Shown here: piece after piece, positions 19,990 through 44,100 of the stretch
Layout: each line of letters starts with the position of its first letter
Numbering within the stretch: position 1 is the first letter of the stretch
Assembly (NCBI GenBank): GCA_964016885.1
Contig: OZ024757.1
Span: forward strand, 2,914,001 to 2,978,000
Length of the DNA: 64,000 nucleotides
Reading direction: 5' to 3'
Source: Eledone cirrhosa
Taxonomy: Eukaryota
The notes under the pieces: generated by a model
What the model was told of the DNA's origin: nothing
Databases searched by the model: none
What the model saw: the letters and a program-made list of their open reading frames with translations, nothing else
Position numbers and translations under genes: made by a program

Positions 19990-22900
19990 TCAATTCAGAG
20001 ATTCTTTCCTGAGTGATTCTAACCACATGTCTGTAGTATCAGAGGTGTGATTTCTCAATTCAGAGATTCTTTCCTGAGACATTCTAACCAGATGTCTATA
20101 GTTTCAGAGCTTTGATCTCTCAATTCAGAGATTCTTTCCTGAGACATTCTAACCACATGTCTATAGTATCAGAGCTGTGATCTCTCAATTCAGAGATTCT
20201 TTCCTGAGACATTCTAACCACATGGCTGTAGTATCAGAGCTGTGATCTCTCAATTCAAAGATTCATTCCTGAGATAATTCTAACCCCATATCTATACTAT
20301 CAGAGCTGTGATCTCTCAATTCAGAAATTCTTTCCTGAGACATTCTAACCACATATCGGTAGTATCAGAGCTGTGATCTCTCAATGCAGAGATTCTTTTC
20401 TGACACATTCTAACCACATGTCTATAGTATCAGAGCTGTGATCTCTCAAATCAGAGATTCTTTCCTGAGGCATTCTAACCACATGTCTAAAGTATCAGAG
20501 CTGTGATCTCTCAATTCAGAGATTCTTTCCTGAGACATTCAAACCACATGTCTATAGTATCAGAGCTGTGATCTCTCAATTCAGAGATTCTTTCCTGAGG
20601 CATTCTAACCACATGTCTAAAGTATCACAGCTGTGATCTCTCAATTCAGAGATTCTTTCCTGAGACATTCTAACTACACATCTGTAGTATCAGAGCTGTA
20701 ATCTCTCAATTCATAGATTCTTTCCAGAGACATTCTAACCACATGACCATAGTATCAGAGCTGTAATCTCTCAATTCAGAGATTCTTTCCAGAGACATTC
20801 TAACCACATGTCTATAGTATCAGCGCTGTGATCTCTCCATTCAGAGATTCTTTCCTGAGACATTCTAACCACATGTCTGTAGTATCAGAGCTGTGATCTC
20901 TCAATTCAGAGATTCTTTCCTGAGACATTCTAACCACATGGCTGTAGTATCAGAGCTGTCATCTCTCAATTGAAAGATTCATTCCTGAGATAATTCTAAA
21001 CCCATATCTATAGTATCAGAGCTGTGATCTCTCAATTCAAAGATTCTTTCCAGAGATATTCTTACCACATGCCTGTAGTATCAGAGCTGTGATCTCTTAA
21101 TTCAGAGATTATTTCTTGAGACATTCTAACTACATGTCTGTAGTATCAGAGCTGTGATCTCTCAATTTAGAGATTCTTTCCTGAGACATTCTAACCACAT
21201 ATCTGTAGTATTGGAGCTGTGATCTCTCAATTCAGAGTTTCCTTCCTGAGACATTCTAAGCACGTGTCTATAGTATCAGAGCTGTGATCTCTAAATTCAA
21301 AAATTCTATCCTGAGATATTCTTACCACATATCGGTAGTATCAGAGCTGTGATCTCTCAATTCAGAGATTCTTTCCTGAGACATTCTAACCACATGTCTA
21401 TAGTATCAGAACTGTTTTCTCTCAATTCAGAGATTCTTTCCTGAGACATTCTAACCACATGTCTTAAGTATCAGAGCTGTGATCTCTCAATTCAGAGATT
21501 CTTTCCTGAGACATTCAAACCACATGTCTGTAGTATCAGAGGTGTGATCTTTCAATTCAAAGATTATTTCCTGAGACATTCTAACCAAATGACAATAGTA
21601 TCAGAGCTGTGATCTCTCAATTCAGAGATTCTTTCCAGAGACATTCTAACCCAATGTCTATAGTATCAGAGATGTGATCTCCCCATTCAGAGATTCTTTC
21701 CTGAGACATTCTAACCACATGTCTGTAGTATCAGAGCTGTGATCTCTCAATTCAGAGATTCTTTCCTGAGACATTCTAACCACATGTCTATAGTGTCAGA
21801 GCTGTGATATCTCAATTCAGAGATTCTTTCCTGAGACATTCTAATCACTTGGCTGTAGTATCAGAGCTGTGATCTCTCAATTCAGAGACTCTTTCCTGAG
21901 GCATTCTAACCACATGTCTAAAGTGTCAGAGCTGTGATCTCTCAATTCAGAGATTCTTTCCTGAGACATTCAAACCACATGTCTGTAGTATCAGAGGTGT
22001 GATCTCTCAATTCAAAGATTCTTTCCTGAGACATTCTAACTACATGTCTGTAGTATCAGAGCTGTGATCTCTCAATTCATAGATTCTTTGCAGAGACATT
22101 CTAACCACATGACCATAGTATCAGAGCTGTGATCTCTCAATTCAGAGGTTCTTTCCAGAGACGTTCTAACCACATGTCTATAGTATCAGAGCTGTGATCT
22201 CTCCGTTGAGAGATTCTTTCCTGAGACATTCTAACCACATGGCTGTAGTATCAGAGCTGTGATCTCTCAATTCAAAGATTCTTTCCTGAGATAATTCTAA
22301 CCACATATCTATAGTATCAGAGCTGTGATCTCTCAATTCAGAGATTCTTTCCTGAGACATTCTAACGACATGTCTGTAGTATCAGAGCTGTGATCTCTCA
22401 ATTCAGAGATCATTTCCTGAAACATTCTAACTACATGTCTGTAGTATCAGAGCTGTGATCCCTCAATTTAGAGATTCTTTCCTGAGACATTCTAACCACA
22501 TATCTGTAGTATCAGAGCTGTGATCTCTCAATCAGGAGTTTCTGTCCTGAGACATTCTAAGCACATGGCTGTAGTATCAGAGCTGTGATCTCTCAATTCA
22601 GAGATTCTTTCCTGAGACATTCTAACCACATGTCTATAGTGTCAGAGCTGTGATCTCTCAATTCAGAGATTCTTTCCTGAGACATTCTAATCACTTGGCT
22701 GTAGTATCAGAGCTGTGATCTCTCAATTCAGAGATTCTTTCCAGAGACATTCTAGCCACATGTCTATAGTATCAGAGCTGTGATTTCTCAATTCAGAGAT
22801 TCTTTCCTGAGTGATTCTAACCACATGTCTGTAGTATCAGAGGTGTGATTTCTCAATTCAGAGATTCTTTCCTGAGACATTCTATCCAGATGTCTATAGT

Positions 22901-25900
22901 TTCAGAGCTTTGATCTCTCAATTCAGAGATTCTTTCCTGAGACATTCTAACCACATGTCTATAGTATCAGAGCTGTGATCTCTCAATTCAGAGATTCTTT
23001 CCTGAGACATTCTAGCCACATGGCTGTAGTATCAGGGCTGTGATCTCTCAATTCAGAGATTCTTTCCTGAGTGATTCTAACCACATGTCTGTAGTATCAG
23101 AGGTGTGATTTCTCAATTCAGAGATTCTTTCCTGAGACATTCTAACCAGATGTCTATAGTTTCAGAGCTTTGATCTCTCAATTCAGAGATTCTTTCCTGA
23201 GACATTCTAACCACATGTCTATAGTATCAGAGCTGTGATCTCTCAATTCAGAGATTCTTTCCTGCGACATTCTAACCACATGGCTGTAGTATCAGAGCTG
23301 TGATCTCTCAATTCAAAGATTCATTCCTGAGATAATTCTAACCCCATATCTATAGTATCAGAGCTGTGATCTCTCAATTCAGAAATTCTTTCCTGAGACA
23401 TTCTAACCACATATCGGTAGTATCAGAGCTGTGATCTCTCAATGCAGAGATTCTTTTCTGACACATTCTAACCACATGTCTATAGTATCAGAGCTGTGAT
23501 CTCTCAAATCAGAGATTCTTTCCTGAGGCATTCTAACCACATGTCTAAAGTATCAGAGCTGTGATCTCTCAATTCAGAGATTCTTTCCTGAGACATTCAA
23601 ACCACATGTCTATAGTATCAGAGCTGTGATCTCTCAATTCAGAGATTCTTTCCTGAGGCATTCTAACCACATGTCTAAAGTATCACAGCTGTGATCTCTC
23701 AATTCAGAGATTCTTTCCTGAAACATTCAAACAACATGTCTGTAGTATCAGAGGTGTGATCTCTCAATTCAAAGATTCTTTCCTGAGACATTCTAACTAC
23801 ACATCTGTAGTATCAGAGCTGTAATCTCTCAATTCATAGATTCTTTCCAGAGACATTCTAACCACATGACCATAGTATCAGAGCTGTAATCTCTCAATTC
23901 AGAGATTCTTTCCAGAGACATTCTAACCACATGTCTATAGTATCAGCGCTGTGATCTCTCCATTCAGAGATTCTTTCCTGAGACATTCTAACCACATGTC
24001 TGTAGTATCAGAGCTGTGATCTCTCAATTCAGAGATTCTTTCCTGAGACATTCTAACCACATGGCTGTAGTATCAGAGCTGTCATCTCTCAATTGAAAGA
24101 TTCATTCCTGAGATAATTCTAAACCCATATCTATAGTATCAGAGCTGTGATCTCTCAATTCAAAGATTCTTTCCAGAGATATTCTTACCACATGCCTGTA
24201 GTATCAGAGCTGTGATCTCTTAATTCAGAGATTATTTCTTGAGACATTCTAACTACATGTCTGTAGTATCAGAGCTGTGATCTCTCAATTTAGAGATTCT
24301 TTCCTGAGACATTCTAACCACATATCTGTAGTATTGGAGCTGTGATCTCTCAATTCAGAGTTTCCTTCCTGAGACATTCTAAGCACGTGTCTATAGTATC
24401 AGAGCTGTGATCTCTAAATTCAAAAATTCTATCCTGAGATATTCTTACCACATATCAGTAGTATCAGAGCTGTGATCTCTCAATTCAGAGATTCTTTCCT
24501 GAGACATTCTAACCACATGTCTATAGTATCAGAACTGTTTTCTCTCAATTCAGAGATTCTTTCCTGAGACATTCTAACCACATGTCTTAAGTATCAGAGC
24601 TGTGATCTCTCAATTCAGAGATTCTTTCCTGAGACATTCAAACCACATGTCTGTAGTATCAGAGGTGTGATCTTTCAATTCAAAGATTATTTCCTGAGAC
24701 ATTCTAACCAAATGACAATAGTATCAGAGCTGTGATCTCTCAATTCAGAGATTCTTTCCAGAGACATTCTAACCCAATGTCTATAGTATCAGAGATGTGA
24801 TCTCCCCATTCAGAGATTCTTTCCTGAGACATTCTAACCACATGTCTGTAGTATCAGAGCTGTGATCTCTCAATTCAGAGATTCTTTCCTGAGACATTCT
24901 AACCACATGTCTATAGTGTCAGAGCTGTGATATCTCAATTCAGAGATTCTTTCCTGAGACATTCTAATCACTTGGCTGTAGTATCAGAGCTGTGATCTCT
25001 CAATTCAGAGACTCTTTCCTGAGGCATTCTAACCACATGTCTAAAGTGTCAGAGCTGTGATCTCTCAATTCAGAGATTCTTTCCTGAGACATTCAAACCA
25101 CATGTCTGTAGTATCAGAGGTGTGATCTCTCAATTCAAAGATTCTTTCCTGAGACATTCTAACTACATGTCTGTAGTATCAGAGCTGTGATCTCTCAATT
25201 CATAGATTCTTTGCAGAGACATTCTAACCACATGACCATAGTATCAGAGCTGTGATCTCTCAATTCAGAGGTTCTTTCCAGAGACGTTCTAACCACATGT
25301 CTATAGTATCAGAGCTGTGATCTCTCCGTTGAGAGATTCTTTCCTGAGACATTCTAACCACATGGCTGTAGTATCAGAGCTGTGATCTCTCAATTCAAAG
25401 ATTCTTTCCTGAGATAATTCTAACCACATATCTATAGTATCAGAGCTGTGATCTCTCAATTCAGAGATTCTTTCCTGAGACATTCTAACGACATGTCTGT
25501 AGTATCAGAGCTGTGATCTCTCAATTCAGAGATCATTTCCTGAAACATTCTAACTACATGTCTGTAGTATCAGAGCTGTGATCCCTCAATTTAGAGATTC
25601 TTTCCTGAGACATTCTAACCACATATCTGTAGTATCAGAGCTGTGATCTCTCAATCAGGAGTTTCTGTCCTGAGACATTCTAAGCACATGGCTGTAGTAT
25701 CAGAGCTGTGATCTCTCAATTCAGAGATTCTTTCCTGAGACATTCTAACCACATGTCTATAGTGTCAGAGCTGTGATCTCTCAATTCAGAGATTCTTTCC
25801 TGAGACATTCTAATCACTTGGCTGTAGTATCAGAGCTGTGATCTCTCAATTCAGAGATTCTTTCCAGAGACATTCTAGCCACATGTCTATAGTATCAGAG

Positions 25901-26170
25901 CTGTGATTTCTCAATTCAGAGATTCTTTCCTGAGTGATTCTAACCACATGTCTGTAGTATCAGAGGTGTGATTTCTCAATTCAGAGATTCTTTCCTGAGA
26001 CATTCTATCCAGATGTCTATAGTTTCAGAGCTTTGATCTCTCAATTCAGAGATTCTTTCCTGAGACATTCTAACCACATGTCTATAGTATCAGAGCTGTG
26101 ATCTCTCAATTCAGAGATTCTTTCCTGAGACATTCTAGCCACATGGCTGTAGTATCAGGGCTGTGATCTC
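19990..26170. repeat. Tandem block duplication, period 3123 bp (48 monomers), 2 copies
   Basis: atcaggagtttctgtcc at 22531/25654; tgaaagattcatt at 20971/24094; identical spurious ORFs at 22178/25301. Boundaries approximate. Confidence 0.88.
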
Positions 26171-29100
26171 TCAATTCAAAGATTCTTTCCTGAGATAATT
26201 CTAACCACATATATATAGTATCAGAGCTGTGATCTCTCAATTCAAAGATTCTTTCCAGAGATATTCTTACCACATGTCTGTAGTATCAGAGCTGTGATCT
26301 CTCAATTCAGAGATTCTTTCCTGAGACATTCTAACCACATGTCTGTAGTATCGGAGCTGTGATCTCTCAATTCAGAGATTCTTTCCTGAGACATTCTAGC
26401 CACATGTCTAAAGTATCAGAGCTGTGATCTTTCAATTCAGAGATTCTTTCCTGAGACATTCTAACCACATGTCTACAGTATCAGAGATGTGATCTCTCCA
26501 TTCAGAGATTCTTTCGTGAGACATTCTAACCACATTTCTGTAGTATCAGAGCTGTGATCTCTCAATTAAGAGATTCTTTCCTGAGACATTCTAACCACAT
26601 GGCTGTAGTATCAGAGCTGTGATCTCTCAATTCAAAGATTCTTTCCTAATATAATTCTAACCACATATCTATAGTATCAGAGCTGTGATCTCTCAATTCA
26701 AAGATTCTTTCGAGAGATATTCTTACCACATGTTTGTAGTATCAGAGCTGTGATCTCTCAATTCAGAGATTCTTTCCTGAGTGATTCTATCCACATGTCT
26801 GTAGTATCAGAGGTGTGATTTCTCAATTCAGAGATTCTTTCCTGAGACATTCTAACCAGATGTCTATAGTTTCAGAGCTTTGATCTCTTAATTCAGAGAT
26901 TCTTTCCTGAGACATTCTAACCACATGTCTATAGTATCAGAGCTGTGATCTCTCAATTCAGAGATTCTTTCCTGAGACATTCTAACCACATGGCTGTAGT
27001 ATCAGAGCTGTGATCTCTCAATTCAAAGATTCATTCCTGAGATAATTCTAACCCCATATCTATAGTATCAGAGCTGTGATCTCTCAATTCAGAAATTCTT
27101 TCCTGAGACATTCTAACCACATATCGGTAGTATCAGAGCTGTGATCTCTCAATGCAGAGATTCTTTCCTGACACATTCTAAGCACATGTCTATAGTATCA
27201 GAGCTGTTATCTCTCAAATCAGAGATTCTTTCCTGAGGCATTCTAACCACATGTCTAAAGTATCAGAGCTGTGATCTCTCAATTCAGAGATTCTTTCCTG
27301 AGACATTCAAACCACATGTCTATAGTATCAGAGCTGTGATCTCTCAATTCAGAGATTCTTTCCTGAGACATTCAAACCACATGTCTATAGTATCAGAGCT
27401 GTGATCTCTCAATTCAAAGATTCTTTCCTGAGACATTCTAACTACACATCTGTAGTATCAGAGCTGTAATCTCTCAATTCATAGATTCTTTCCAGAGACA
27501 TTCTAACCACATGACCATAGTATCAGAGCTGTAATCTCTCAATTCAGAGATTCTTTCCAGAGACATTCTAACCACATGTCTATAGTATCAGCGCTGTGAT
27601 CTCTCCATTCAGAGATTCTTTCCTGAGACATTCTAACCACATGTCTGTAGTATCAGAGCTGTGATCTCTCAATTCAGAGATTCTTTCCTGAGACATTCTA
27701 ACCACATGGCTGTAGTATCAGAGCTGTCATCTCTCAATTCAAAGATTCATTCCTGAGATAATTCTAACCCCATATCTATAGTATCAGAGCTGTGATCTCT
27801 CAATTCAAAGATTCTTTCCAGAGATATTCTTACCACATGCCTGTAGTATCAGAGCTGTGATATCTCAATTCAGAGATTCTTTCCTGAGACGTTCTAACCA
27901 CATGTCTGTAGTATCAGAGGTGTGATCTCTCAATTCAAAGATTCTTTCCTGAGACATTCTAACTACATGTCTGTAGTATCAGAGCTGTGATCTGTCAATT
28001 CAGAGATTCTTTCCAGAGACATTCTAACCACATGACCATAGTATCAGAGCTGTGATCTCTCAATTCAGAGATTCTTTCCAGAGACATTCTAACCACATGT
28101 CTGTAGTATCAGATATGTGATCTCTCCATTCAGAGATTCTTTCCTGAGACATTCTAACCACATGTCTGTAGTATCAGAGCTGTGATATCTCAATTCAGAG
28201 ATTCTTTCCTGACACATTCTAACCACACGTCTATACTATCAGAGCTGTGATCTCTCAATTCAGAGATTCTTTCCTGAGACATTCTAACCACATGGCTGTA
28301 GTATCAGAGCTGTGATCTCTCAATTCAAAGATTCTTTCCTGATATAATTCTAACCACATATCTATAGTATCAGAGCTGTGATCTCTCAATTCAAAGATTC
28401 TTTCCTGAGACATTCTAACCACATGTCTGTAGTATCAGAACTGTGATCTCTCAATTCAGAGATTCTTTCCAGAGACATTCTAGCCACATGTCTATAGTGT
28501 CAGAGCTGTGATTTCTCAATTCAGAGATTCTTTCCTGAGTGATTCTAACCACATGTCTGTAGTATCAGAGGTGTGATTTCTCAATTCAGAGATTCTTTCC
28601 TGAGACATTCTAACCAGATGTCTATAGTTTCAGAGCTTTGATCTCTCAATTCAGAGATTCTTTCCTGAGACATTCTAACCACATGGCTGTAGTATCAGAG
28701 CTGTCATCTCTCAATTCAAAGATTCATTCCTGAGATAATTCTAACCCCATATCTATAGTATCAGAGCTGTGATCTCTCAATTCAAAGATTCTTTCCAGAG
28801 ATATTCTTACCACATGCCTGTAGTATCAGAGCTGTGATCTCTCAATTCAGAGATTCTTTCCTGAGACGTTCTAACCACATGTCTGTAGTATCAGAGGTGT
28901 GATCTCTCAATTCAAAGATTCTTTCCTGAGACATTCTAACTACATGTCTGTAGTATCAGAGCTGTGATCTGTCAATTCAGAGATTCTTTCCAGAGACATT
29001 CTAACCACATGACCATAGTATCAGAGCTGTGATCTCTCAATTCAGAGATTCTTTCCAGAGACATTCTAACCACATGTCTGTAGTATCAGATATGTGATCT

Positions 29101-30479
29101 CTCCATTCAGAGATTCTTTCCTGAGACATTCTAACCACATGTCTGTAGTATCAGAGCTGTGATATCTCAATTCAGAGATTCTTTCCTGACACATTCTAAC
29201 CACACGTCTATACTATCAGAGCTGTGATCTCTCAATTCAGAGATTCTTTCCTGAGACATTCTAACCACATGGCTGTAGTATCAGAGCTGTGATCTCTCAA
29301 TTCAAAGATTCTTTCCTGATATAATTCTAACCACATATCTATAGTATCAGAGCTGTGATCTCTCAATTCAAAGATTCTTTCGAGAGATATTCTTACCACA
29401 TGTTTGTAGTATCAGAGCTGTGATCTCTCAATTCAGAGATTCTTTCCTGAGACATTCTAACCACATGTCTGTAGTATCAGAGCTGTGATCTCTCAATTCA
29501 GAGATTCTTTCCAGAGACATTCTAGCCACATGTCTATAGTGTCAGAGCTGTGATTTCTCAATTCAGAGATTCTTTCCTGAGTGATTCTAACCACATGTCT
29601 GTAGTATCAGAGGTGTGATTTTTCAATTCAGAGATTCTTTCCTGAGACATTCTAACCAGATGTCTATAGTTTCAGAGCTTTGATCTCTCAATTCAGAGAT
29701 TCTTTCCTGAGACATTCTAACCACATGTCTATAGTATCAGAGCTGTGATCTCTCAATTCAGAGATTCTTTCCTGAGACATTCTAACCACATGGCTGTAGT
29801 ATCAGAGCTGTGATCTCTCAATTCAAAGATTCTTTCCTGAGATAATTCTAACCACATATCTATAGTATCAGAGCTGTGATCTCTCAATTCAAAGATTCTT
29901 TCCAGAGATATTCTTACAGCATGTCTGTAGTATCAGAGCTGTGATCTCTCAATTCAGAGATTCTTTCCTGAGACATTCTAACCACATGTCTGTAGTATCG
30001 GAGCTGTGATCTCTCAATTCAGAGATTCTTTCCTGAGACATTCTAGCCACATGTCTAAAGTATCAGAGCTGTGATCTCTCAATTCAGAGATTCTTTCGAG
30101 AGATATTCTTACCACATGTTTGTAGTATCAGAGCTGTGACCTCTCAATTCAGAGATTCTTTCCTGAGACATTCTAACCACATGTCTACAGTATCAGAGAT
30201 GTGATCTCTCCATTCAGAGATTCTTTCCTGAGACATTCTAACCACATATCTGTAGTATCAGAGCTGTGATATCTCAATTCAGAGATTCTTTCCTGACACA
30301 TTCTAACCACATGTCTATAGTTTCAGAGCTGTGATCTCTCAATTCAGAGATTCTTTCCTGAGACATTCTAACCACATGGCTGTAGTATCAGAGCTGTGAT
30401 CTCTCAATTCAAAGATTCTTTCCTGATATAATTCTAACCACATATCTATAGTATCAGAGCTGTGATCTCTCAATTCAAA

Positions 30480-30483
30480 GATT
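30480..30483 (+). other. Target-site duplication GATT, left copy
   Basis: caattcaaaGATT|tttagg; the uninterrupted monomer reads caattcaaaGATTctttcgagag. A 5-bp AGATT reading is also possible but removes the terminal A of CTACA. Confidence 0.9.
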
Positions 30484-30555
30484 TTTAGGAAATAGATATC
30501 GGTGCACATGCAACATAATATAAAAGACAAAGAGTACTGGTGTGTGTGATAAAGT

Positions 30556-30561
30556 TTTACT
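30556..30561 (-). terminator. Variant poly(A) signal AGTAAA in 3' LTR
   Basis: Positionally equivalent to ATTAAA at 31885-31890 in the 5' LTR; ~70 nt from the LTR end. Confidence 0.35.
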
Positions 30562-30751
30562 TCATAGTAGTCAAAGGTGTATAAGGTAAAGTGTTGTTAC
30601 CCGATGGCTATAATACCATTGTGAAGTTGGTAGAAAATGTCTTGGCGCTCTCATCTCAGGCTGGTGAGCTGGATTGTGCTGGTAACGAAAGGGTCGTCCA
30701 GAGAGAATCACCAGCTATGGTCGAAGATGTTACCACTTTAGGAATCAGGAG

Positions 30752-30865
30752 GCGAGAGAGAGATTTCGCGGTTAATCGCTCCTTTTATCTCTCTTGACCG
30801 GAAGTGACCACTAGGGAGTTTGGTCAATCCCAAAGGGAAGCAACTCCACCTACTTCCTGTCTAGA
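30752..30865 (-). promoter_or_regulatory. U3 promoter-like module of 3' LTR
   Basis: ACCGGAAGT 30797-30805, acttcctgt 30852-30860, GATAAAA 30783-30789 (minus) in the TATA position, CT-rich run at 30754-30763; same order as in the other LTR. Confidence 0.5.
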
Positions 30866-30911
30866 GAACAGCGATTCAATTGTCGTGGCAGGGGAGGCAA
30901 CTCTTACTACA

Positions 30912-30926
30912 GTATCCCCCGCCAGA
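30912..30926 (-). other. Polypurine tract (plus-strand primer site)
   Basis: Minus strand reads ttttaaaaaTCTGGCGGGGGATAC|TGTAGTAAG: a G-rich tract immediately 5' of a TG-starting LTR. Confidence 0.72.
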
Positions 30927-31142
30927 TTTTTAAAACATAAAAAATCGAAAGAAGCATGCATGGAGTAAGATGGCGAGCATGTAAGAGGCATGAAAAATAT
31001 GGTACAGAGTAATGGAAGTAAGAAAAGTCAAAAGTTCAAATGTACAAAATATAGTTCACAGGTGTGCAGTCACATGACAGCAGGAAAGAAAGTGTGTTCC
31101 AGAGAATGAATGCAGGTGGTCTCTGTTCTGTGGTATATCGTG

Positions 31143-31184
31143 AATTTCCAACCTCCGAATGGATTTTCTCACAGGAAGAGTGCT
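31143..31184 (-). pseudogene. Possible decayed remnant of a retrotransposon pol C-terminal basic motif
   Basis: Translates STLPVRKSIRRLEI, reminiscent of the RSxRxxRxPxRL-type tail seen at the end of many Ty3/Gypsy pol ORFs, ~220 nt upstream of the PPT. Pattern recognition only. Confidence 0.22.
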
Positions 31185-31208
31185 GCAAAAATATATTCTC
31201 TGGCTTTG

Positions 31209-31341
31209 GTTGCTGTTGCTGTTGCTGCTGTATTGCTGTTGCTGTTGCTGCTGTTGTATTGCTGTTGTTGCTGCTGTATTGCTGTTGCTGCTGCTGCTGT
31301 ATTGCTGTTGCTGCTGTATTGCTGTTGCTGCTGCTGTTGTT
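31209..31341. repeat. Compound (CTG/TTG)n microsatellite punctuated by TATTGCTGTT units
   Basis: TATT anchors at 31231, 31257, 31277, 31300 and 31317 separated by CTG/TTG triplets. Confidence 0.95.
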
Positions 31342-31807
31342 TCGCTGAGTGAGCGTATTCGGTGTTTAAATTCAAAGTAAAAAATTTTTTTTTTTAGAAA
31401 AAAATGAGTTGCGCAAAGTGCTAGAAATAGCAGCCGAAGTTGATGGTCGATGTTGAGAATGCGTTGACCTGGAAGGGTCAAGAGGCCAGCGACCAGAGAA
31501 ATAAGCATTCCCAATAAATGCGCGGTTATCAACGGTAAATTTACATTGTAAATTTATAAACCGGCAAATAGAAGAATATAGCTTAAGGCTGAAGAATCCC
31601 TGGTGATAAATGGCGTGCGGCTGTCTGTGAGAAGAGACATCTCAGTGAATCGAGAATTTATGCTGCCTACACGTGCCAATACAAGGTTGAAAAAAAAATA
31701 TTTCTAACGCGCGAGAAAAAGATAGTGCAATTTTGAAAGTGACAATGATGAAAAAGAAAGGCTTCAATCAGCATAATTATATTTTGAACTTTGAGCTCTT
31801 CTATTAC

Positions 31808-31822
31808 TTTTACTTTTCACCA
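31808..31822 (-). other. Degenerate or truncated primer-binding site
   Basis: Minus strand ...cgctata|ag|TGGTGAAAAGTAAAA. TGG (complement of tRNA CCA) is at the canonical 2-nt spacing from the LTR end; I cannot assign a tRNA. Confidence 0.45.
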
Positions 31823-31824
31823 CT

Positions 31825-32189
31825 TATAGCGATGAACGGGGTGTATGAATGTAACAAAACGAGACAATGTTTGTGTATATAATATTTAATTAACGGTAGA
31901 TAGAATACTTGACATGTCAAAGATAGATGTTAGAATGAAACAAAGTTAGTAGTTACCGTTTTGATTGCCAGGCAAACGCGGCTGGCAGAGGGCGCCTGGC
32001 TAAGGCCAGGCGCCTGTTGGCCAAATTAATGGCAGAGCCAAATGAGAAGACTCTTGACCTGGTGCCGAAAAGGCAAAGAGAGAGAGGAAGCTTAAAGTTG
32101 TTAGTTTTATAGGGCTCTGACCGGAAGTTTGAGAAAGGGTTCCACTTCCCGTCTAGATCCCAATCAAAACAAGGGAGACAACCGCTACA
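31825..32189 (-). repeat. Putative 5' LTR (365 bp)
   Basis: Terminal inverted repeat tatagcg...cgctaca (6/7 match); TATAAAA (32105-32111, minus), ATTAAA (31885-31890, minus); followed on the minus strand by AG-TGGTG. Confidence 0.72.
32075..32157 (-). promoter_or_regulatory. U3 promoter of 5' LTR: inverted GGAAGT (ETS-like) pair, TATA box, pyrimidine-rich initiator region
   Basis: ACCGGAAGT 32120-32128, acttcccgt 32144-32152, TATAAAA 32105-32111 (minus), CT-rich run ~20-30 nt downstream on the minus strand. Confidence 0.55.
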
Positions 32190-32193
32190 GATT
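32190..32193 (+). other. Target-site duplication GATT, right copy
   Basis: accgctaca|GATTctttcgagagatattctt. Confidence 0.9.
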
Positions 32194-35100
32194 CTTTCGA
32201 GAGATATTCTTACCACATGTTTGTAGTATCAGAGCTGTGATCTCTCAATTCAGAGATTCTTTCCTGAGACATTCTAACCACATGTCTGTAGTATCAGAGC
32301 TGTGATCTCTCAATTCAGAGATTCTTTCCAGAGACATTCTAGCCACATGTCTATAGTATCAGAGCTGTGATCTCTCAATTCAGAGATTCTTTCCTGAGTG
32401 ATTCTAACCACATGTCTGTAGTATCAGAGGTGTGATTTCTCAATTCAGAGATTCTTTCCTGAGACATTCTAACCAGATGTCTATAGTTTCAGAGCTTTGA
32501 TCTCTCAATTCAGAGATTCTTTCCTGAGACATTCTAACCACATGTCTATAGTATCAGAGCTGTGATCTCTCAATTCAGAGATTCTTTCCTGAGACATTCT
32601 AACCACATGGCTGTAGTATCAGAGCTGTGATCTCTCAATTCAAAGATTCATTCCTGAGATAATTCTAACCCCATATCTATAGTATCAGAGCTGTGATCTC
32701 TCAATTCAGAAATTCTTTCCTGAGACATTCTAACCACATATCGGTAGTATCAAAGCTGTGATCTCTCAATGCAGAGATTCTTTCCTGACACATTCTAACC
32801 ACATGTCTATAGTATCAGAGCTGTGATCTCTCAATTCAGAGATTCTTTCCTGAGACATTCAAACCACATGTCTATAGTATCAGAGCTGTGATCTCTCAAT
32901 TCAGAGATTCTTTCCTGAGGCATTCTAACCACATGTCTAAAGTATCACAGCTGTGATCTCTCAATTCAGAGATTCTTTCCTGAAACATTCAAACCACATG
33001 TCTGTAGTATCAGAGGTGTGATCTCTCAATTCAAAGATTCTTTCCTGAGACATTCTAACTACACATCTGTAGTATCAGAGCTGTAATCTCTCAATTCATA
33101 GATTCTTTCCAGAGACATTCTAACCACATGACCATAGTATCAGAGCTGTAATCTCTCAATTCAGAGATTCTTTCCAGAGACATTCTAACCACATGTCTAT
33201 AGTATCAGCGCTGTGATCTCTCCATTCAGAGATTCTTTCCTGAGACATTCTAACCACATGTCTGTAGTATCAGAGCTGTGATCTCTCAATTCAGAGATTC
33301 TTTCCTGAGACATTCTAACCACATGGCTGTAGTATCAGAGCTGTCATCTCTCAATTGAAAGATTCATTCCTGAGATAATTCTAAACCCATATCTATAGTA
33401 TCAGAGCTGTGATCTCTCAATTCAAAGATTCTTTCCTGAGACATTCTAGCCACATGTCTATAGTATCAGAGCTGTGATCTCTTAATTCAGAGATTATTTC
33501 TTGAGACATTCTAACTACATGTCTGTAGTATCAGAGCTGTGATCTCTCAATTTAGAGATTCTTTCCTGAGACATTCTAACCACATATCTGTAGTATTGGA
33601 GCTGTGATCTCTCAATTCAGAGTTTCCTTCCTGAGACATTCTAAGCACATGTCTATAGTATCAGAGCTGTGATCTCTAAATTCAAAAATTCTATCCTGAG
33701 ATATTCTTACCACATATCGGTAGTATCAGAGCTGTGATCTCTCAATGCAGAGATTCTTTCCTGAGACATTCTAACCACATGTCTATAGTATCAGAACTGT
33801 TTTCTCTCAATTCAGAGATTCTTTCCTGAGACATTCTAACCACATGTCTTAAGTATCAGAGCTGTGATCTCTCAATTCAGAGATTCTTTCCTGAGACATT
33901 CAAACCACATGTCTGTAGTATCAGAGGTGTGATCTCTCAATTCAAAGATTATTTCCTGAGACATTCTAACCAAATGACAATAGTATCAGAGCTGTGATCT
34001 CTCAATTCAGAGATTCTTTCCAGAGACATTCTAACCACATGACCATAGTATCAGAGCTGTGATCTCTCAATTCAGAGATTCTTTCCAGAGACATTCTAAC
34101 CCAATGTCTATAGTATCAGAGATGTGATCTCCCCATTCAGAGATTCTTTCCTGAGACATTCTAACCACATGTCTGTAGTATCAGAGCTGTGATCTCTCAA
34201 TTCAGAGATTCTTTCCTGAGACATTCTAACCACATGTCTATAGTGTCAGAGCTGTGATCTCTCAATTCAGAGATTCTTTCCTGAGACATTCTAATCACTT
34301 GGCTGTAGTATCAGAGCTGTGATCTCTCAATTCAGAGACTCTTTCCTGAGGCATTCTAACCACATGTCTAAAGTGTCAGAGCTGTGATCTCTCAATTCAG
34401 AGATTCTTTCCTGAGACATTCAAACCACATGTCTGTAGTATCAGAGGTGTGATCTCTCAATTCAAAGATTCTTTCCTGAGACATTCTAACTACATGTCTG
34501 TAGTATCAGAGCTGTGATCTCTCAATTCATAGATTCTTTGCAGAGACATTCTAACCACATGACCATAGTATCAGAGCTGTGATCTCTCAATTCAGAGGTT
34601 CTTTCCAGAGACGTTCTAACCACATGTCTATAGTATCAGAGCTGTGATCTCTCCATTGAGAGATTCTTTCCTGAGACATTATAACCACATGGCTGTAGTA
34701 TCAGAGCTGTGATCTCTCAATTCAAAGATTCTTTCCTGAGATAATTCTAAACACATATCTATAGTATCAGAGCTGTGATCTCTCAATTCAGAGATTCTTT
34801 CCTGAGACATTCTAACCACATGTCTGTAGTATCAGAGCTGTGATCTCTCAATTCAGAGATCATTTCCTGAAACATTCTAACTACATGTCTGTAGTATCAG
34901 AGCTGTGATCCCTCAATTTAGAGATTCTTTCCTGAGACATTCTAACCACATATCTGTAGTATCAGAGCTGTGATCTCTCAATCAGGAGTTTCTGTCCTGA
35001 GACATTCTAAGCACATGGCTGTAGTATCAGAGCTGTGATCTCTCAATTCAGAAATTCTTTCCTGAGATATTCTAACCACATATCGGTAGTATCAGAGCTG

Positions 35101-38100
35101 TGATCTCTCAATGCAGAGATTCTTTCCTGAGACATTCTAACCACATGTCTAAAGTATCAGAGCTGTGATCTCTCAATTCAGAGATTCTTTCCTGAGACAT
35201 TCAAACCACATGTCTGTAGTATCAGAGGTGTGATCTCTCAATTCAAAGATTCTTTCCTGAGACATTCTAACTACATGTCTGTAGTATCAGAGCTGTGATC
35301 TCTCAATTCAGAGATTCTTTCCAGAGGCATTCTAACCACATGACCATAGTATCAGAGCTGTGATCTCTCAATTCAGAGATTCTTTCCAGAGACATTCTAA
35401 CCACATGTCTACAGTATCAGATATGTGATCTCTCCATTCAGAGATTCTTTCCTGAGACATTCTAACCACATGTCTGTAGTATCAGAGCTGTGATATCTCA
35501 ATTCAGAGATTCTTTCCTGACACATTCTAACCACACGTCTATACTATCAGAGCTGTGATCTCTCAATTCAGAGATTCGTTCCTGAGACATTCTAAACACA
35601 TGGCTGTAGTATCAGAGCTGTGATCTCTCAATTCAAAGATTCTTTCCTGATATAATTCTAACCACATATCTATAGTATCAGAGCTGTGATCTCTCAATTC
35701 AAAGATTCTTTCGAGAGATATTCTTACCACATGTTTGTAGTATCAGAGCTGTGATCTCTCAATTCAGAGATTCTTTCCTGACACATTCTAACCACATGTC
35801 TGTAGTATCAGAGCTGTGATCTCTCAATTCAGAGATTCTTTCCTGAGACATTCTAGCCACATGTCTATAGTATCAGAGCTGTGATTTCTCAATTCAGAGA
35901 TTCGTTGCTGAGTGATTCTAACCACATGTCTGTAGTATCAGAGGTGTGATTTCTCAATTCAGAGATTCTTTCCTGAGATATTCTAACCATATGTCTATAG
36001 TTTCAGAGCTTTGATCTCTCAATTCAGAGATTCTTTCCTGAGACATTCTAACCACATGTCTATAGTATCAGAGCTGTGATCTCTCAATTCAGAGATTCTT
36101 TCCTGAGACATTGTAACCACATGGCTGTAGTATCAGAGCTGTGATCTCTCAATTCAAAGATTCTTTCCTGAGATAATTCTAACCACATATCTATAGTATC
36201 AGAGCTGTGATCTCTCAATTCAAAGATTCTTTCCAGAGATATTCTTACCACATGTCTGTAGTATCAGAGCTGTGATCTCTCAATTCAAAGATTCTTTCCA
36301 GAGATATTCTTACCACATGTCTGTAGTATCAGAGCTGTGATCTCTCAATTCAGAGATTCTTTCCTGAGACATTCTAGCCACATGTCTAAAGTATCAGAGC
36401 TGTGATCTCTCAATTCAGAGATTCTTTCCTGAGTGATTCTAACCACATGTCAGTAGTATCAGAGGTGTGATCTCTCAATTCAGAGATTCCTTCCAGAGAC
36501 ACACTAACCACATGTCTGTAGTATCAGAGCTGTGATCTCTCAATTCAGAGTTTCTTTCCTGAGACATTCTAAGCACATATTTATAGTATCAGAGCTGTGA
36601 TCTCTCAATTCAGAGATTCTTTCCAGAGACATTCTAACCACATGAAGATAGTATCAGAGCTGTGATCTCTCAATTCAGAGATTCTTTCCAGAGACACACT
36701 AACCACATTGTCTGTAGTATCAGAGCTGTGATCTCTCAATTCAGAGTTTCTTTCCTGAGACATTCTAAGCACATGTCTATTGTATCAGAGCTGTGATCCC
36801 TCAATTTAGAGATTCTTTCCTGAGTCATTCTAACCACATATCTGTAGTATCAGAGCTGTGATCTCTCAATTCAGAGATTATTTCCTGAGACATTCTAACT
36901 ACATGTCTGTAGTATCAGAGCTGTGATCTCCCAATCCAGCGATTCTTACCTCAGAGATTCTAACCACATGTCTATAGAATCATAGCTGTGATCTCGCAAT
37001 TCAGAGATCCTTTCCTCAGACATTCTAACCACATGTCTGTAGTGTCAGAGCTGTGATATCTCAAACCAGAGATTTTTTCCAGAGACATTCTAACCACATG
37101 TCTGTAGTATCAGAGCTGTGATCTCTCATTTCAGAGATTCATTCCCAAGACATTCTAACCACATGTCTATAGTATCAGAGATGTGATCTCTCAATTCAGA
37201 GATTCTTTCCTGAGACATTCTAACCAAATGACAATAGTATCAGAGCTGTGATCTCTCAATTCAGAGATTCTTTCCAGTGACACACTAAGCACATGTCTGT
37301 AGTATCAGAGCTGTGATCTCTCAATTCAGAGTTTCTTTCCTGAGACATTCTAAGCACATGTCTATAGTATCAGAGCTGTGATCTCTCAATTCAGAAATTC
37401 TTTCCTGAGACATTCTAACAACATATCGGTAGTATCAGAGCAGTGATCTCTCAATTCAGAGATTATTTCCTGAGACATTCTAATTACATGTCTGTAGTAT
37501 CAGAGCTGTGATCTCTCAATTTAGAGATTCTTTCCTGAGACATTCTAACCACATATCTGTAGTATCAGAGCTGTGATCACTCAATTCAGAGAATCTTTCC
37601 TGAGACATTCTAACTACATGTCTGTAGTATTAGAGCTGTAATCTCTCAATTCATAGATTCTTTGCAGAGACATTCTAACCACATGACAATAGTATCAGAG
37701 CTGTGATCTCTCAATTCAGAGGTTCTTTCCAGAGACGTTCTAACCACATGTCTATAGTATCAGAGATGTGATCTCTCCATTGAGAGATTCTTTCCTGAGA
37801 CATTCTAACCACATGGCTGTAGTATCAGAGCTGTGATCTCTCAATTCAAAGATTCTTTCCTGAGATAATTCTAACCACATATCTATATTATCAGAGCTGT
37901 GATCTCTCAATTCAAAGATTCTTTCCAGAGATATTCTTACCACATGTCTGTAGTATCAGAGCTGTGATCTCTCAATTCAGAGATTCTTTCCTGAGACATT
38001 CTAACCACATGTCTGTAGTATCAGAGCTGTGATCTCTCAATTCAGAGATTCTTTCCTGAGACATTCTAGCCACATGTCTATAGTATCAGAGCTGTGATCT

Positions 38101-41100
38101 CTCAATTCAGAGATTCTTTCCTGAGTGATTCTAACCACATGTCAGTAATATCAGAGGTGTGATCTCTCAATTCAGAGATTCTTTCCTGAGACATTCTAAC
38201 CAGATGTCTGTAGAATCAGAGCTGTGATCTCTCAATTCAGAGATCATGTCCTGAAACATTCTAACTACATGTCTGTAGTATCAGAGCTGTGATCCCTCAA
38301 TTTAGAGATTCTTTCCTGAGACATTCTAACCACATATCTGTAGTATCAGAGCTGTGATCTCTCAATTCAGAGTTTCTTTCCTGAGACATTCTAAGCACAT
38401 CTATAGTATCAGAGCTGTGATCTCTCAATTCAGAAATTCTTTCCTGAGATATTCTAACCACATATCGGTAATATCAGAGCTGTGATCTCTCAATGCAGAG
38501 ATTCTTTCCTGAGACATTCTAACAACATGTCTATAGTATCAGAACTGTTTTCTCTTAATTCAGAGATTCTTTCCTGAGACATTCTAACCACATGTCTAAA
38601 GTATCAGAGCTGTGATCTCTCAATTCAGGGATTCTTTCCTGAGACATTCAAACTAAATGTCTGTAGTATCAGAGCTGTGATCTCTCAACTCAGAGATTCT
38701 TTCCAGAGACATTCTAGCCACATGTCTGTAGTATCAGAGCTGTGATCTCTCAACTCAGAGATTCTTTCCAGAGACATTCTAGCCACATGTCTATAGTATC
38801 AGAGCTGTGATCTCTCAATTCAGAGATTCTTTCCTGAGTAATTCTAACCACTTGTCTGTAGTATCAGAGGTGTGATTTCTCAATTCAGAGATTCTTTCCT
38901 GAGACATTCTAACCAGATATCTATAGTTTCAGAGCTTTGATCTCTCAATTCAGAGATTCTTTCCTGAGTAATTCTAACCACATGTCTATAGTATCAGAGC
39001 TGTGATCTCTCAATTCAGAGATTCTTTCCTGAGACATTCTAACCACATGGCTGTAGTATCAGAGCTGTGATCTCTCAATTCAGAGATTCTTTCCTGAGAC
39101 ATTCTAACCACATGTCTGTAGTATCAGAGCTGTGATCTCTCAACTCAGAGATTCTTTCCAAAGACATTCTAGCCACATGTCTATAGTATCAGAGCTGTGA
39201 TCTCTCAATTCAGAGATTCTTTCCTGAGTAATTCTAACCACTTGTCTGTAGTATCAGAGGTGTGATTTCTCAATTCAGAGATTCTTTCCTGAGACATTCT
39301 AACCAGATATCTATAGTTTCAGATCTTTGATCTCTCAATTCAGAGATTCTTTCCTGAGTAATTCTAACCACATGTCTATAGTATCAGAGCTGTGATCTCT
39401 CAATTCAGAGATTCTTTCCTGAGACATTCTAACCACATGGCTGTAGTATCAGAGCTGTGATCTCTCAATTCAAAGATTCTTTCCTGAGATAATTTTAACC
39501 ACATATCTATAGTATCAGAGCTGTGATCTCTCAATTCAAAGATTCTTTCCAGAGATATTCTTACCACATGTCTGTAGTATCAGAGCTGTGATCTCTCAAT
39601 TCAGAGATTCTTTCCTGAGTGATTCTAACCACATGTCAGTAGAATCAGAGCTGTGATCTCTCAATTCAGAGATTCTTTCCTGAGACATTCTAACCAGATG
39701 TTTGTAGTATCAGAGCTGTGATCTCTCAATTCAGAGATTCTTTCCAGAGACATTCTAACCACATGAAAATAGTATCAGAGCTGTGATCTCTCAATTCAGA
39801 GATTCTTTCCAGAGACACACTAACCACATTGTCTATTGTATCAGAGCTGTGATCTCTCAATTCAGAAATTCTTTCCTGAGACATTCTAACCACATATCGG
39901 TAGTATCAGAGCTGTATTCTCTCAATTCAGATATCATTTCCTGAAACATTCTAACTACATGTCTGTAGTATCAGAGCTGTGATCCCTCAATTCAAAGATT
40001 CTTTCCAGAGATATTCTAACCACATATCTGTAGTATCAGAGCTGTGATCTCTCAATTCAGAGATTATTTCCTGAGACATTCTAACTACATGTCTGTAGTA
40101 TCAGAGCTGTGATCTCCCAATCCAGCGATTCTTACCTCAGAGATTCTAACCACATGTCTATAGAATCATAGCTGTGATCTCGCAATTCAGAGATCCTTTC
40201 CTCAGACATTCTAACCACATGTCTGTAGTATCAGAGCTGTGATATCTCAAACCAGAGATTCTTTCCAGAGACATTCTAACCACATGTCTGTAGTATCAGA
40301 GCTGTGATCTCTCATTTCAGAGATTCATTCCCAAGACATTCTAATCACATGTCTATAGTATCAGAGATGTGATCTCTCAATTCAGAGATTCTTTCCTGAG
40401 ACATTCTAACCAAATGACAATAGTATCAGAGCTGTGATCTCTCAATTCAGAGATTCTTTCCAGTGACACACTAAGCACATGTCTGTAGTATCAGAGCTGT
40501 GATCTCTCAATTCAGAGTTTCTTTCCTGAGACATTCTAAGCACATGTCTATAGTATCAGAGCTGTGATCTCTCAATTCAGAAATTCTTTCCTGAGACATT
40601 CTAACCACATATCGGTAGTATCAGAGCTGTGATCTCTCAATTCAGAGATTATTTCCTGAGACATTCTATCTACATGTCTGTAGTATCAGAGCTGTGATCT
40701 CTCAATTTAGAGATTCTTTCCTGAGACATTCTAACCACATATCTGTAGTATCAGAGCTGTGAACTCTCAATTCAGAGTTTATTTCCTGAGACATTCGAAG
40801 CACATGTCTATAGTATCAGAGCTGTGATCTCTCAATTTAGAGATTCTTTCCTGAGACATTCTAACCACATATCTGTAGTATCAGAGCTGTGATCTCTCAA
40901 TTCAGAGATTCTTTCCTGAGGCATTCTAACCACATGTCTAAAGTGTCAGAGCTGTGATCTCTCAATTCAGAGATTCTTTCCTGAGACATTCAAACCACAT
41001 GACCATAGTATCAGAGCTGTGATCTCTCAATTCAGAGGTTCTTTCCTGAGACATTCTAACCACATATCTATAGTATCAGAGCTGTGATCTCTCAATTCAA

Positions 41101-44100
41101 AGATTCTTTCCAGAGATATTCTTACCACATGTCTGTAGTATCAGAGCTGTGATCTCTCAATTCAGAGGTTCTTTCCTGAGACATTCTAACCACATGTCTG
41201 TAGTATCAGAGCTGTGATCTCTCAATTCAGAGATTCTTTCCTGAGACATTCTAGCCACATGTCAATAGTATCAGAGCAGTGATCTCTCAATTCAGAGATT
41301 CTTCCTGTGTGATTCTAACCAGATGTCTGTAGTATCAGAGCTGTGATCTCTCAATTCAGAGATTCTTTCCTGAGACATTCAAACCACATGTCTGTAGTAT
41401 CAGAGGTGTGATCTCTCAATTCATAGATTCTTTGCAGAGACATTCTAACCACATGACCATAGTATCAGAGCTGTGATCTCTCAATTCAGAGATTCTTTCC
41501 AGAGACATTCTAACCACATGTCTACAGTATCAGAGATGTGATCTCTCCATTCAGAGATTCTTTCCTGAAAACATTCTAACCACATGTCTGTAGTATCAGA
41601 GCTGTGATATCTCAATTCAGAGATTCTTTCCTGACACATTCTAACCACATGTCTATAGTATCAGAGCTGTGATCTCTCAATTCAGAGATTCTTTCCTGAG
41701 ACATTCTAACCACATGGCTGTAGTATCAGAGCTGTGATCTCTCAATTCAAAGATTCTTTCCTGATATAATTCTAACCACATATCTATAGTATCAGAGCTG
41801 TGATCTCTCAATTCAAAGATTCTTTCGAGAGATATTTTTACCACATGTTTGTAGTATCAGAGCTGTGATCTCTCAATTCAGAGATTCTTTCCTGAGACAT
41901 TCTAAGCACATGTCTATAGTATCAGAGCTGTGATCTCTCAATTCAGAGATTCTTTCCAGAGACATTCTAACCACATGAAAATAGTATCCGAGCTGTGATC
42001 TCTCAATTCAGAGATTCTTTCCAGAGACACACTAACCACATTGTCTGTAGTATCAGAGCTGTGATCTCTCAATTCAGAGTTTCTTTCCTGAGACATTCTA
42101 AGCACATGTCTATTGTATCAGAGCTGTAATCTCTCAATTCAGAAATTCTTTCCTGAGACATTCTAACCACATATCGGTAGTATCAGAGCTGTGATCTCTC
42201 AATTCAGCTATCATTTCCTGAAACATTCTAACTACATGTCTGTAGTATCAGAGCTGTGATCCCTCAATTTAGAGATTCTTTCCTGAGACATTCTAACTAC
42301 ATGTCTGTAGTATCAGAGCTGTGATCTCCCAATCCAGCGATTCTTACCTCAGAGATTCTAACCACATGTCTATAGAATCATAGCTGTGATCTCGCAATTC
42401 AGAGATCCTTTCCTCAGACATTCTAACCACATGTCTGTAGTGTCAGATCTGTGATATCTCAAACCAGAGATTCTTTCCAGAGACATTCTAACCACATGTC
42501 TGTAGTATCAGAGCTGTGATCTCTCATTTCAGTGATTCATTCCCAAGACATTCTAACCACATGTCTATAGTATCAGAGATGTGATCTCTCAATTCAGAGA
42601 TTCTTTCCTGAGACATTCTAACCAAATGACAATAGTATCAGAGCTGTGATCTCTCAATTCAGAGATTCTTTCCAGTGACACACTAAGCACATGTCTGTAG
42701 TATCAGAGCTGTGATCTCTCAATTCAGAGTTTCTTTCCAGAGACATTCTAAGCACATGTCTATAGTATCAGAGCTGTGATCTCTCAATTCAGAAATTCTT
42801 TCCTGAGACATTCTAACCACATATCGGTAGTATCAGAGCTGTGATCTCTCAATTCAGAGATTATTTCCTGAGACATTCTAACTACATGTCTGTAGTATCA
42901 GAGCTGTGATCTCTCAATTTAGAGATTCTTTCCTGAGACATTCTAACCACATATCTGTAGTATCAGAGCTGTGAACTCTCAATTCAGAGTTTCTTTCCTG
43001 AGACATTCTAAGCACATGTCTATAGTATCAGAGCTGTGATCACTCAATTCAGAGAATCTTTCCTGAGACATTCAAACCACATGTCTGTAGTATCAGAGCT
43101 GTGATCTCTCAATTCAGAGATTCTTTCCTGAGGCATTCTAACCACATGACCATAGTATCAGAGCTGTGATCTCTCAATTCAGAGATTCTTTCCAGGGACA
43201 TTCTAACCGCATGTCTATAGTATCAGAGCTGTGATCTCTCCATTCAGAGATTCTTTCCTGAGACATTCTAACCACATGTCTGTAGTATCAGAGCTGTGAT
43301 CTCTCAATTCAGAGATTCTTTCCTGAAACATTCAAACCACATGTCTGTAGTATCAGAGGTGTGATCTCTCAATTCAAAGATTCTTTCCTGAGACATTCTA
43401 ACTACATGTCTGTAGTATCAGAGCTGTAATCTCTCAATTCATAGATTCTTTCCAGAGACATTCTAACCACATGACCATAGTATCAGAGCTGTGATCTCTC
43501 AATTCAGAGATTCTTTCCAGGGACATTCTAACCGCATGTCTATAGTATCAGAGCTGTGATCTCTCCATTCAGAGATTCTTTCCTGAGACATTCTAACCAC
43601 ATGGCTGTAGTATCAGACCTGTGATCTCTCAATTCAAAGATTCTTTCGAGAGATATTCTTACCACATGTTTGTAGTATCAGAGCTGTGATCTCTCAATTC
43701 AGAGATTATTTCCTGAGACATTCTAACCACATGTCTGTAGTATCAGAGCTGTGATCTCTCAATTCAGAGATTCTTTCCTGAGTGATTCTAACCAAATGTC
43801 TGTAGTATCAGAGGTGTGATTTCTCAATTCAGAGATTCTTTCCTGAGACATTCTAACCAGATGTCTATAGTTTCAGAGCTTTGATCTCTCAATTCAGAGA
43901 TTCTTTCCTGAGACATTCTAACCACATGTCTATAGTATCAGAGCTGTGATCTCTCAATTCAGAGATTCTTTCCTGAGACATTCTAACCACATGGCTGTAG
44001 TATCAGAGCTGTGATCTCTCAATTCAAAGATTCTTTCCTGAGATAATTCTAACCACATATCTATAGTATCAGAGCTGTGATCTCTCAATTCAAAGATTCT

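Follow-up and report, generated by a model that had tools for sequence, protein, structure and literature searches.

Long terminal repeats of two retrotransposon families at the ends of a single insertion in a satellite array of Eledone cirrhosa

The window, that is, the whole stretch of 64,000 nucleotides analysed here from the Eledone cirrhosa genome (contig OZ024757.1, positions 2,914,001 to 2,978,000), consists of a host array of a 65-bp satellite and carries an insertion of 1,706 bp at 30484-32189, coordinates that coincide with those of a first-pass annotation made from the letters alone. This is the sole large insertion in the satellite array within the 64-kb window and 10 kb on each side; the array itself extends at least 10 kb beyond both ends of the window. 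Exact matches to the flanks at 18703, 19808 and 29376 point to a likely higher-order satellite unit near 1.1 kb (~1,105 bp). The insertion is bordered by a perfect 4-bp target-site duplication (TSD), GATT, in exact satellite register. When 195 + 195 flanking bases are joined through one GATT, they reproduce the intact site at window position 19808 with 0 mismatches, and 130 + 130 joined bases are found at three window sites; this exact empty-site match indicates that the target was one intact satellite site. Four public sequencing runs gave fragmented contigs, none of which spans 30484-32189, so the locus rests on the assembly. The features of the locus, in which A and B denote two LTR families described below, are the following:

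1..64000, no strand: host array of the 65-bp satellite, about 983 units
30480..30483, no strand: target-site duplication, left copy, 4-bp GATT
30484..30911, minus strand: A 3′ LTR, 98.8% identical to its nearest copy
30912..30923, minus strand: family-A polypurine tract (PPT), same junction in 28 genomic places
30924..31044, minus strand: A-specific 3′ untranslated region, with A alleles at diagnostic columns
31045..31586, minus strand: sequence common to both families (about 96% alike), from sequence comparison with A and B copies
31209..31339, minus strand: CAG/CAA-rich simple repeat, inside the crossover interval
31587..31793, minus strand: B-specific internal region (31587-31774 is 100% identical to five B loci)
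31775..31816, plus strand: inverted (antisense) 42-base piece of the B-specific 3′ region, 97.6% identical to B copies on the opposite strand
31817..31824, minus strand: 8-base pseudo-PBS remnant of the B leader, from sequence comparison
31825..31839, minus strand: U5 end (last 15 LTR bases) swapped for an LTR-end look-alike of the B leader
31825..32189, minus strand: B 5′ LTR, 348/348 bases identical to solo LTR L014 outside the U5 end
32190..32193, no strand: target-site duplication, right copy, 4-bp GATT

The LTR lengths reported in the first pass, 428 bp on the left (30484-30911) and 365 bp on the right (31825-32189), hold, as does its perfect GATT duplication. The two LTRs share 231 identities over 457 columns (~50% alike), and the global alignment that the annotation had called for gives a score of 188, well above its shuffled controls (128.5 ± 10.9 for 500 dinucleotide shuffles; z 5.5, 0/500 reach the score). 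The similarity is clear on the U3 side (30746-30911 vs 32069-32189; z 6.9, 0/500 shuffles), but on the R/U5 side the colinear islands listed in the first pass (ggtgcacatg, gtcaaag, gttacc), taken together, do not clearly exceed chance (z 1.9 for the global alignment, 24/500 shuffles; z 1.6 for the local one, 32/500). The CpG observed/expected ratios are 0.64 for the left LTR, 0.70 for the interior and 0.79 for the right LTR. On the minus strand both LTRs show the same order of motifs, namely CTTCCGGTCA, a TATA-like box, a CT run and an AATAAA-like hexamer, which may represent promoter, start site and poly(A) signal; such a reading would imply a short U3 and a long R, the latter not conserved between the two LTRs. 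The LTR ends on this strand are TGTAG...TAAA for A and TGTAG...TATA for B. The element lacks the usual pair of near-identical LTRs, though each of its LTRs lies within 1.2% of relatives. Judging from their sequences, the two LTRs are not decayed copies of one another and belong to two families, in agreement with the earlier suggestion of two LTR families rather than neutral decay, as each is near-identical to relatives of its own family. The idea that the whole 1706 bp could be a long solo LTR or the end of a longer element was rejected, both LTRs being complete units of their own families.

Genome searches with each LTR assigned the left one to family A (42 matches among the best 40 scored candidates, with many copies at 93-99%) and the right one to family B (many copies at 98-99% among the best 40 candidates scored). 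Each family occurs mostly as like LTR pairs, the pattern predicted in the first pass for two of its candidate explanations, intermolecular plus-strand transfer between co-packaged elements and recombination between two families inserted at the same site. The PPT seen at 30912-30923 in the first pass is the ordinary one of family A, and exact-match patterns of PPT junctions, which miss diverged copies, count 28 places for A and 420 for B (~15 B per A). Full-length A elements are of ~6.1 kb, and the two that were looked at contain a 277-aa first frame and a 1,051-aa pol frame with PF00078 (reverse transcriptase), PF17919/PF17917 (RNase H), PF17921 and PF00665 (integrase), which is the Ty3/Gypsy order; a tblastn search with Pol against phages gave no match. 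A CX2HX9CX3C Gag motif gives one match in the 277-aa first frame of the A element at L057, and a 4-bp TSD flanks 14 of 15 A-A elements. The PBSs of A and B match the 3′ end of tRNA-Trp(CCA) genes, five of which were called in four of the 14 loci scanned (L207-L210); the first four loci and six of the ten next ones are not tRNA genes and resemble LTR elements with long tRNA-Trp complements. The tRNA-Trp(CCA) genes at L207-L210 form a cluster of at least five (G000:C4:277.41-277.44 Mb). The same Gag motif, a tRNA-Trp PBS and a 4-bp TSD are given in the accessible part of PMC2582038 for the CsRn1 clade (CsRn1, PwRn1, AgCR), together with the reverse transcriptase-RNase H-integrase order, likewise found in family A, and both forms of LTR ends, TGT...AAA as in A and TGT...ATA as in B. 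By its Gag motif, tRNA-Trp PBS, 4-bp TSD and LTR ends, family A is classified as a CsRn1-type autonomous Gypsy.

B elements are of ~2.1 kb with TGT...ATA ends, share ~480 bp of the 3′ internal region of A at ~96%, and the reference copy has no match to the A coding region; B is here read as the non-autonomous partner of A. The B leader (L066 and most B copies) shows a 32-base complement to tRNA-Trp with one mismatch, followed by an LTR-end look-alike and a second pseudo-PBS. The 32-base match was considered as a record of read-through and then dropped, since long tRNA-Trp complements occur in other LTR elements. B-type LTRs form subfamilies of 72% to 98% identity with a common internal region (L136-L193), which indicates that the LTR evolves, or gets swapped, faster than the interior. 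One B element, at L138, is nested within A-like pol sequence, and at L071 (501-5933) two occurrences of a B 5′ LTR, each with the PBS junction and an identical flank, are spaced 5,065 bp apart, which probably reflects tandem duplication at the locus or a repeat in the assembly.

Read on the minus strand, and as far as the assembly is correct, the window element is a chimera with B on its 5′ side and A on its 3′ side. In an alignment of 11 A and 25 B copies, the B-to-A crossover maps between 31382, the last site diagnostic of B, and the sites diagnostic of A, of which 31193 and 31069 are weak and those from 31044 firm; 30912-31069 is 100% identical to A copies. Frames of 158 and 94 aa in the CAG repeat are likely by-products of the repeat. 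The B-specific internal region is absent from full-length A elements, and the inverted 42-base piece, which overlaps it by a 19-base imperfect inverted repeat, had no match in 10/10 full-length A elements tested. What the first pass took for a PBS-like site in canonical position is not the PBS of either family: it is an 8-base remnant, AGTGGTGA on the minus strand, in which 7/8 bases match the pseudo-PBS of the B leader. The true tRNA-Trp PBS and most of the ~460-bp B leader are missing, so that the element has no intact PBS. The last 17 LTR bases of the element occur in no other fetched locus, where the look-alike of the leader gives 108 matches, some of them overlapping. The junction between LTR and leader has one exact match in the 3.0 Gb genome, the window element itself, and no second locus spanning the element was present among the best 40 scored of 1720 candidates. 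The element is young and single-copy.

Elements with unlike ends recur in the genome. All 28 loci with an A PPT junction were looked at, and the 23 with intact LTRs at both ends were checked for TSDs. The set comprises 14 A-A elements with TSD and one without; five elements with unlike outer LTRs and a perfect TSD (the window element, L093, L105, L122 and L078); two unlike-ended ones without TSD or truncated (L094, L091); two B-A-B elements, one with TSD (L076) and one without (L077); and four without partner LTR or truncated. Unlike outer LTRs are therefore present in 5/20 TSD-flanked elements with an A 3′ LTR, with the TSD of L105 being weaker evidence as it lies inside a TA repeat, and with the B LTR of L093 and L105 coming from a related subfamily (82-84%). 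A TSD was not found at L082, L094 and L077, and wider flanks gave no partner LTR for L079, L090, L092, L103 and L132. Outside the A-PPT set, further unlike-ended cases are L075, L129, L088 and the reciprocal L155 (A 5′/B 3′), in addition to L083, L085 and L086, which were read by eye; in L083 the unlike LTRs are inverted, with both U3 ends outward and a perfect 4-bp TSD. On a single contig, C1, the first 68 listed B junctions correspond to 67 loci, five of which contain an A LTR, and two are unlike-ended with TSD. The internal junction is different in every unlike-ended element.

Some of these loci are informative about their joints. In L088 (TSD GGTT) a B-type 5′ LTR is joined, at the PBS region, to an A interior of full length; L055, L108 and L129 carry an inverted A LTR plus a PBS whose end is the 18th base complementary to the tRNA, as in a strong-stop DNA; and the joints of the window element, L088, L055, L108, L129 and L131 all lie at the tRNA-complement/look-alike spot of the B leader. 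L078 (1540-3387, CTCT) and L075 (540-2725, ACAA) have inverted unlike LTRs with both U5 ends outward and a perfect TSD, and in L122 (TSD GAAG) a short A end is attached to a complete B element. Elements with three LTRs and tandem ones (B-A-B, B-B-B, B-B-A) were seen at L076, L102, L119, L190 and L122. Finally, at L196 (5335-9705) and L197 (120-3447), B-type LTRs flank 3 kb of A coding sequence (96-98%) with the 5′ part deleted, and they are swaps of the LTR onto a coding backbone. LTR swapping between autonomous and non-autonomous partners has reportedly been seen in soybean, judging by the title of a 2010 study by Du et al., and the exchange at L196 and L197 can be likened to it.

Template switching and intermolecular plus-strand transfer between co-packaged A and B RNAs probably gave rise to the window element, which makes the second of the first-pass candidates the one favoured by the evidence. 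The family origin of the segments, the crossover interval, the PBS loss, the single copy, the target site and the recurrence are established observations, and the order of the steps is deduced from one finished sequence. The pathway would start with an A RNA and a B RNA packaged together, both primed by tRNA-Trp; as B is ~15 times commoner than A by PPT junctions, mixed particles would be common. The first jump of the A minus strand would go to its own 3′ end, since A and B differ too much in R for a crossing, and the strand would copy the A LTR, the PPT and the 3′ region before switching to the B RNA within the shared 480 bp. Near the B leader, 42 bases would be copied from B minus-strand DNA, giving the inverted piece, and synthesis would land on the leader pseudo-PBS. 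B plus-strand strong-stop DNA would then pair with the look-alike LTR end in the leader and supply the 5′ LTR. Finally, an A-type integrase would take both ends (each TGTAG; TAAA vs TATA) and insert the molecule with a 4-bp duplication. The resulting chimera likely integrated once and is predicted to be a dead end, since it lacks a PBS and its R regions are unlike; the insertion is probably an inert accident.

Several observations support such a pathway. Each segment of the window element is assigned to A or B at 98-100%, and both the 5/20 unlike-ended elements and the alleles shared between B-B mates and other copies (below) also count in favour. The antisense orientation and B-specific sequence of the inverted piece, next to a 3′ end of A type in the element itself, exclude a fold-back of its own strand and show that a second DNA, of B type, was present. 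For an A-ended cDNA to carry an entire B LTR, with its U3, at the 5′ end, B plus-strand DNA is needed, and the attachment of this LTR at a U5 look-alike fits the joint of a mis-aimed plus-strand transfer. The inverted piece, this attachment and the sister joints at the PBS or at an 18-base tRNA copy point to reverse transcription. According to the portion of PMC5651808 available, an intermolecular second transfer is favoured if the minus strand finishes on the other RNA, and divergence of R disfavours an intermolecular first transfer; both conditions hold in the window element. In the same source, the second transfer was generally intramolecular in cell-culture studies of HIV, which counts against the proposal. 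For Ty3, strong-stop DNAs are displaced when priming at the PPT is repeated, and the element passes on its own PBS (from the accessible text of PMC5371799); the PBSs of B, most of which share a variant that differs from the tRNA-Trp genes examined, accord with this. On the other hand, L078 and L075, with both U5 ends outward, speak against plus-strand transfer as the explanation of every case: alone it does not account for them, and integration from two donors or DNA-templated switching fits better.

The main rival explanation is precisely an integration from two donors, in which one integrase complex would have inserted, at one site, a B cDNA by its U3 end together with an A cDNA by its U5 end, followed by host repair through the shared 480 bp. 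It accounts for the perfect TSD and for a crossover in shared sequence, covers L078 (CTCT), L075 (ACAA) and L122 (GAAG) with no extra steps, and concerted integration of two donors is mentioned for retroviral integrases in a passage of PMC2857682. The PBS loss and the inverted piece, however, lie at least 390 bp from the A/B crossover, which would require a B donor already defective, and the joints of L088, L055, L108 and L129 fall at primer-site boundaries, as expected of reverse transcription and not of repair; this rival is considered unlikely. A lower probability still is given to a growing A strand that switched to a complete or almost complete B DNA and took the 5′ LTR from it with no strong-stop transfer. 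It is close to the preferred explanation, the donor molecule being the sole difference, and DNA strands did serve as templates, as the inverted piece and the inverted chimeras show, but the switch by itself leaves the attachment of the LTR at the leader's U5 look-alike unexplained.

A change after insertion, either by recombination between insertions at the same base or by conversion of the 3′ half of a B element by an A donor, is quite improbable. Satellite arrays do recombine, and some loci lack a TSD (L082, L094, L077). LTR conversion between separate elements has been reported in plants (in the part of PMC7251063 at hand). Against these points, the 195 + 195 flanking bases match an intact site without mismatch, the 64-kb window and the 10 kb on either side contain no further large insertion, and the junction between B U3 and satellite is unique in the genome, with no second one at the same satellite base elsewhere; moreover, conversion would have had to stop exactly at the last LTR base, where there is little homology, and to do so repeatedly outside the satellite. 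Same-site recombination, the third candidate of the first pass, is hence very unlikely, given the exact pre-insertion site, the lack of any other B U3 end at that base and the unlike-ended elements with perfect TSDs that also exist outside the window's satellite. An assembly artefact joining an A copy to a B copy inside the satellite would be favoured by the repeat-rich setting and by the lack of a spanning read, yet it is hard to reconcile with a junction of unique sequence, flanks in exact higher-order register with a TSD and the recurrence of like structures at other loci, and is given very little weight. The first candidate of the annotation, a non-autonomous family that keeps unlike ends and is moved as DNA by a Gypsy/Ginger-like integrase, seems the least credible of all. 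Several unlike-ended elements with different 4-bp TSDs would be in its favour, but these are not copies of one another and their junctions all differ, the window junction occurs once in 3.0 Gb with no second spanning match among the best 40 scored of 1720 candidates, the terminal inverted repeats are of only a few bases, and each of the LTRs is propagated in like pairs.

That co-packaged LTR elements recombine is known. A search by title and abstract, with the subscription literature largely outside it, found no account of elements with a TSD that carried LTRs from two families at birth, and insertions of this kind, ~1 in 4 of the A-ended copies here, are a variant for which we did not find a description. 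The standard model produces two identical LTRs, even if mosaic, and ONSEN and Ty1, whose co-packaged autonomous and defective members likewise give mosaic progeny, end in two such LTRs (portions of PMC6894440 and PMC5668417). In the CsRn1 clade, LTR pairs are reported to be >97% identical, in contrast to the ~50% of the window LTRs, and the text available of PMC2582038 describes neither a non-autonomous partner nor unlike-ended insertions. The same step, a minus strand that ends on the other RNA and takes its plus-strand strong-stop DNA, is proposed for HIV-1 recombinants in the consulted sections of PMC5651808, where the transfer is deduced from breakpoints one cycle later, whereas here first-generation products with unlike LTRs are fixed in the genome. 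The partners here are also two retrotransposon families ~50% alike in the LTR. Three-LTR complexes formed by template switching (PMC1950507, and Cassandra in PMC4079214, each in part) are likewise chimeras of co-packaged RNAs in a single insertion with TSD. The B-A-B loci L076 and L102 fit this class as outlined in the available part of PMC1950507, L076 showing the TSD, near-identical outer LTRs and an internal LTR; near-identical outer LTRs are diagnostic there, and those of the window element are unlike, which sets it apart from the class. A Ginger-like DNA transposon would show multiple copies of the same two-ended unit, which the window element does not.

The dating of LTR retrotransposons assumes that both LTRs are identical at insertion. 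The window insertion combines parts 0-1.2% from their relatives with LTRs ~50% alike and a perfect TSD, and the recurrence of such mismatched insertions means that differences between end repeats would overstate their age. Programs that look for LTR elements by similar ends would miss unlike-ended elements, and less extreme cases would be given an old date. Since the two families have LTRs that can be told apart, use the same primer and number hundreds of copies, the frequency of these events can be counted from one assembly. It is conceivable, although the balance tilts somewhat against it, that building LTRs from two RNAs is routine in the A/B pair, with about a quarter of the TSD-flanked A-ended elements and a sizeable share of the B-B ones born unlike. 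If so, the genome would be a countable fossil record of intermolecular plus-strand transfer, and LTR-pair dating would fail for the A/B family; the abundant B would turn many autonomous cDNAs into dead-end hybrids, and would also seed LTR swaps onto the coding backbone.

A last question is whether the LTRs of ordinary B-B elements carry a similar signal. From 60 new B loci on contig C1, 46 were parsed as LTR pairs (14 unparsed), 41 of them with TSD. Thirteen of these 41 pairs differ by at most one change and the others by up to 14. Among the 173 substitutions between mates, 95 are alleles that two or more other elements also carry, where new mutations would give an expected 13.8%; when the last 25 columns and the CpG sites are excluded, shared alleles make up 46 of 98 differences, against 12.5% expected, in counts that include adjacent, non-independent columns (e.g. 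columns 166-171). This says that ageing alone did not produce many of the differences between B-B mates, and the test is compatible with two templates and with later gene conversion alike. In 10/41 B elements one LTR is closer to a non-mate; this nearest-neighbour test was discarded as proof, since a star-like burst gives the same result. The U5 end of B holds 53 of the 173 mate differences within the last 25 of 447 columns and is hypervariable between copies too. One PBS variant, unlike the tRNA-Trp genes examined, is common to 30 of the 46 B PBSs.
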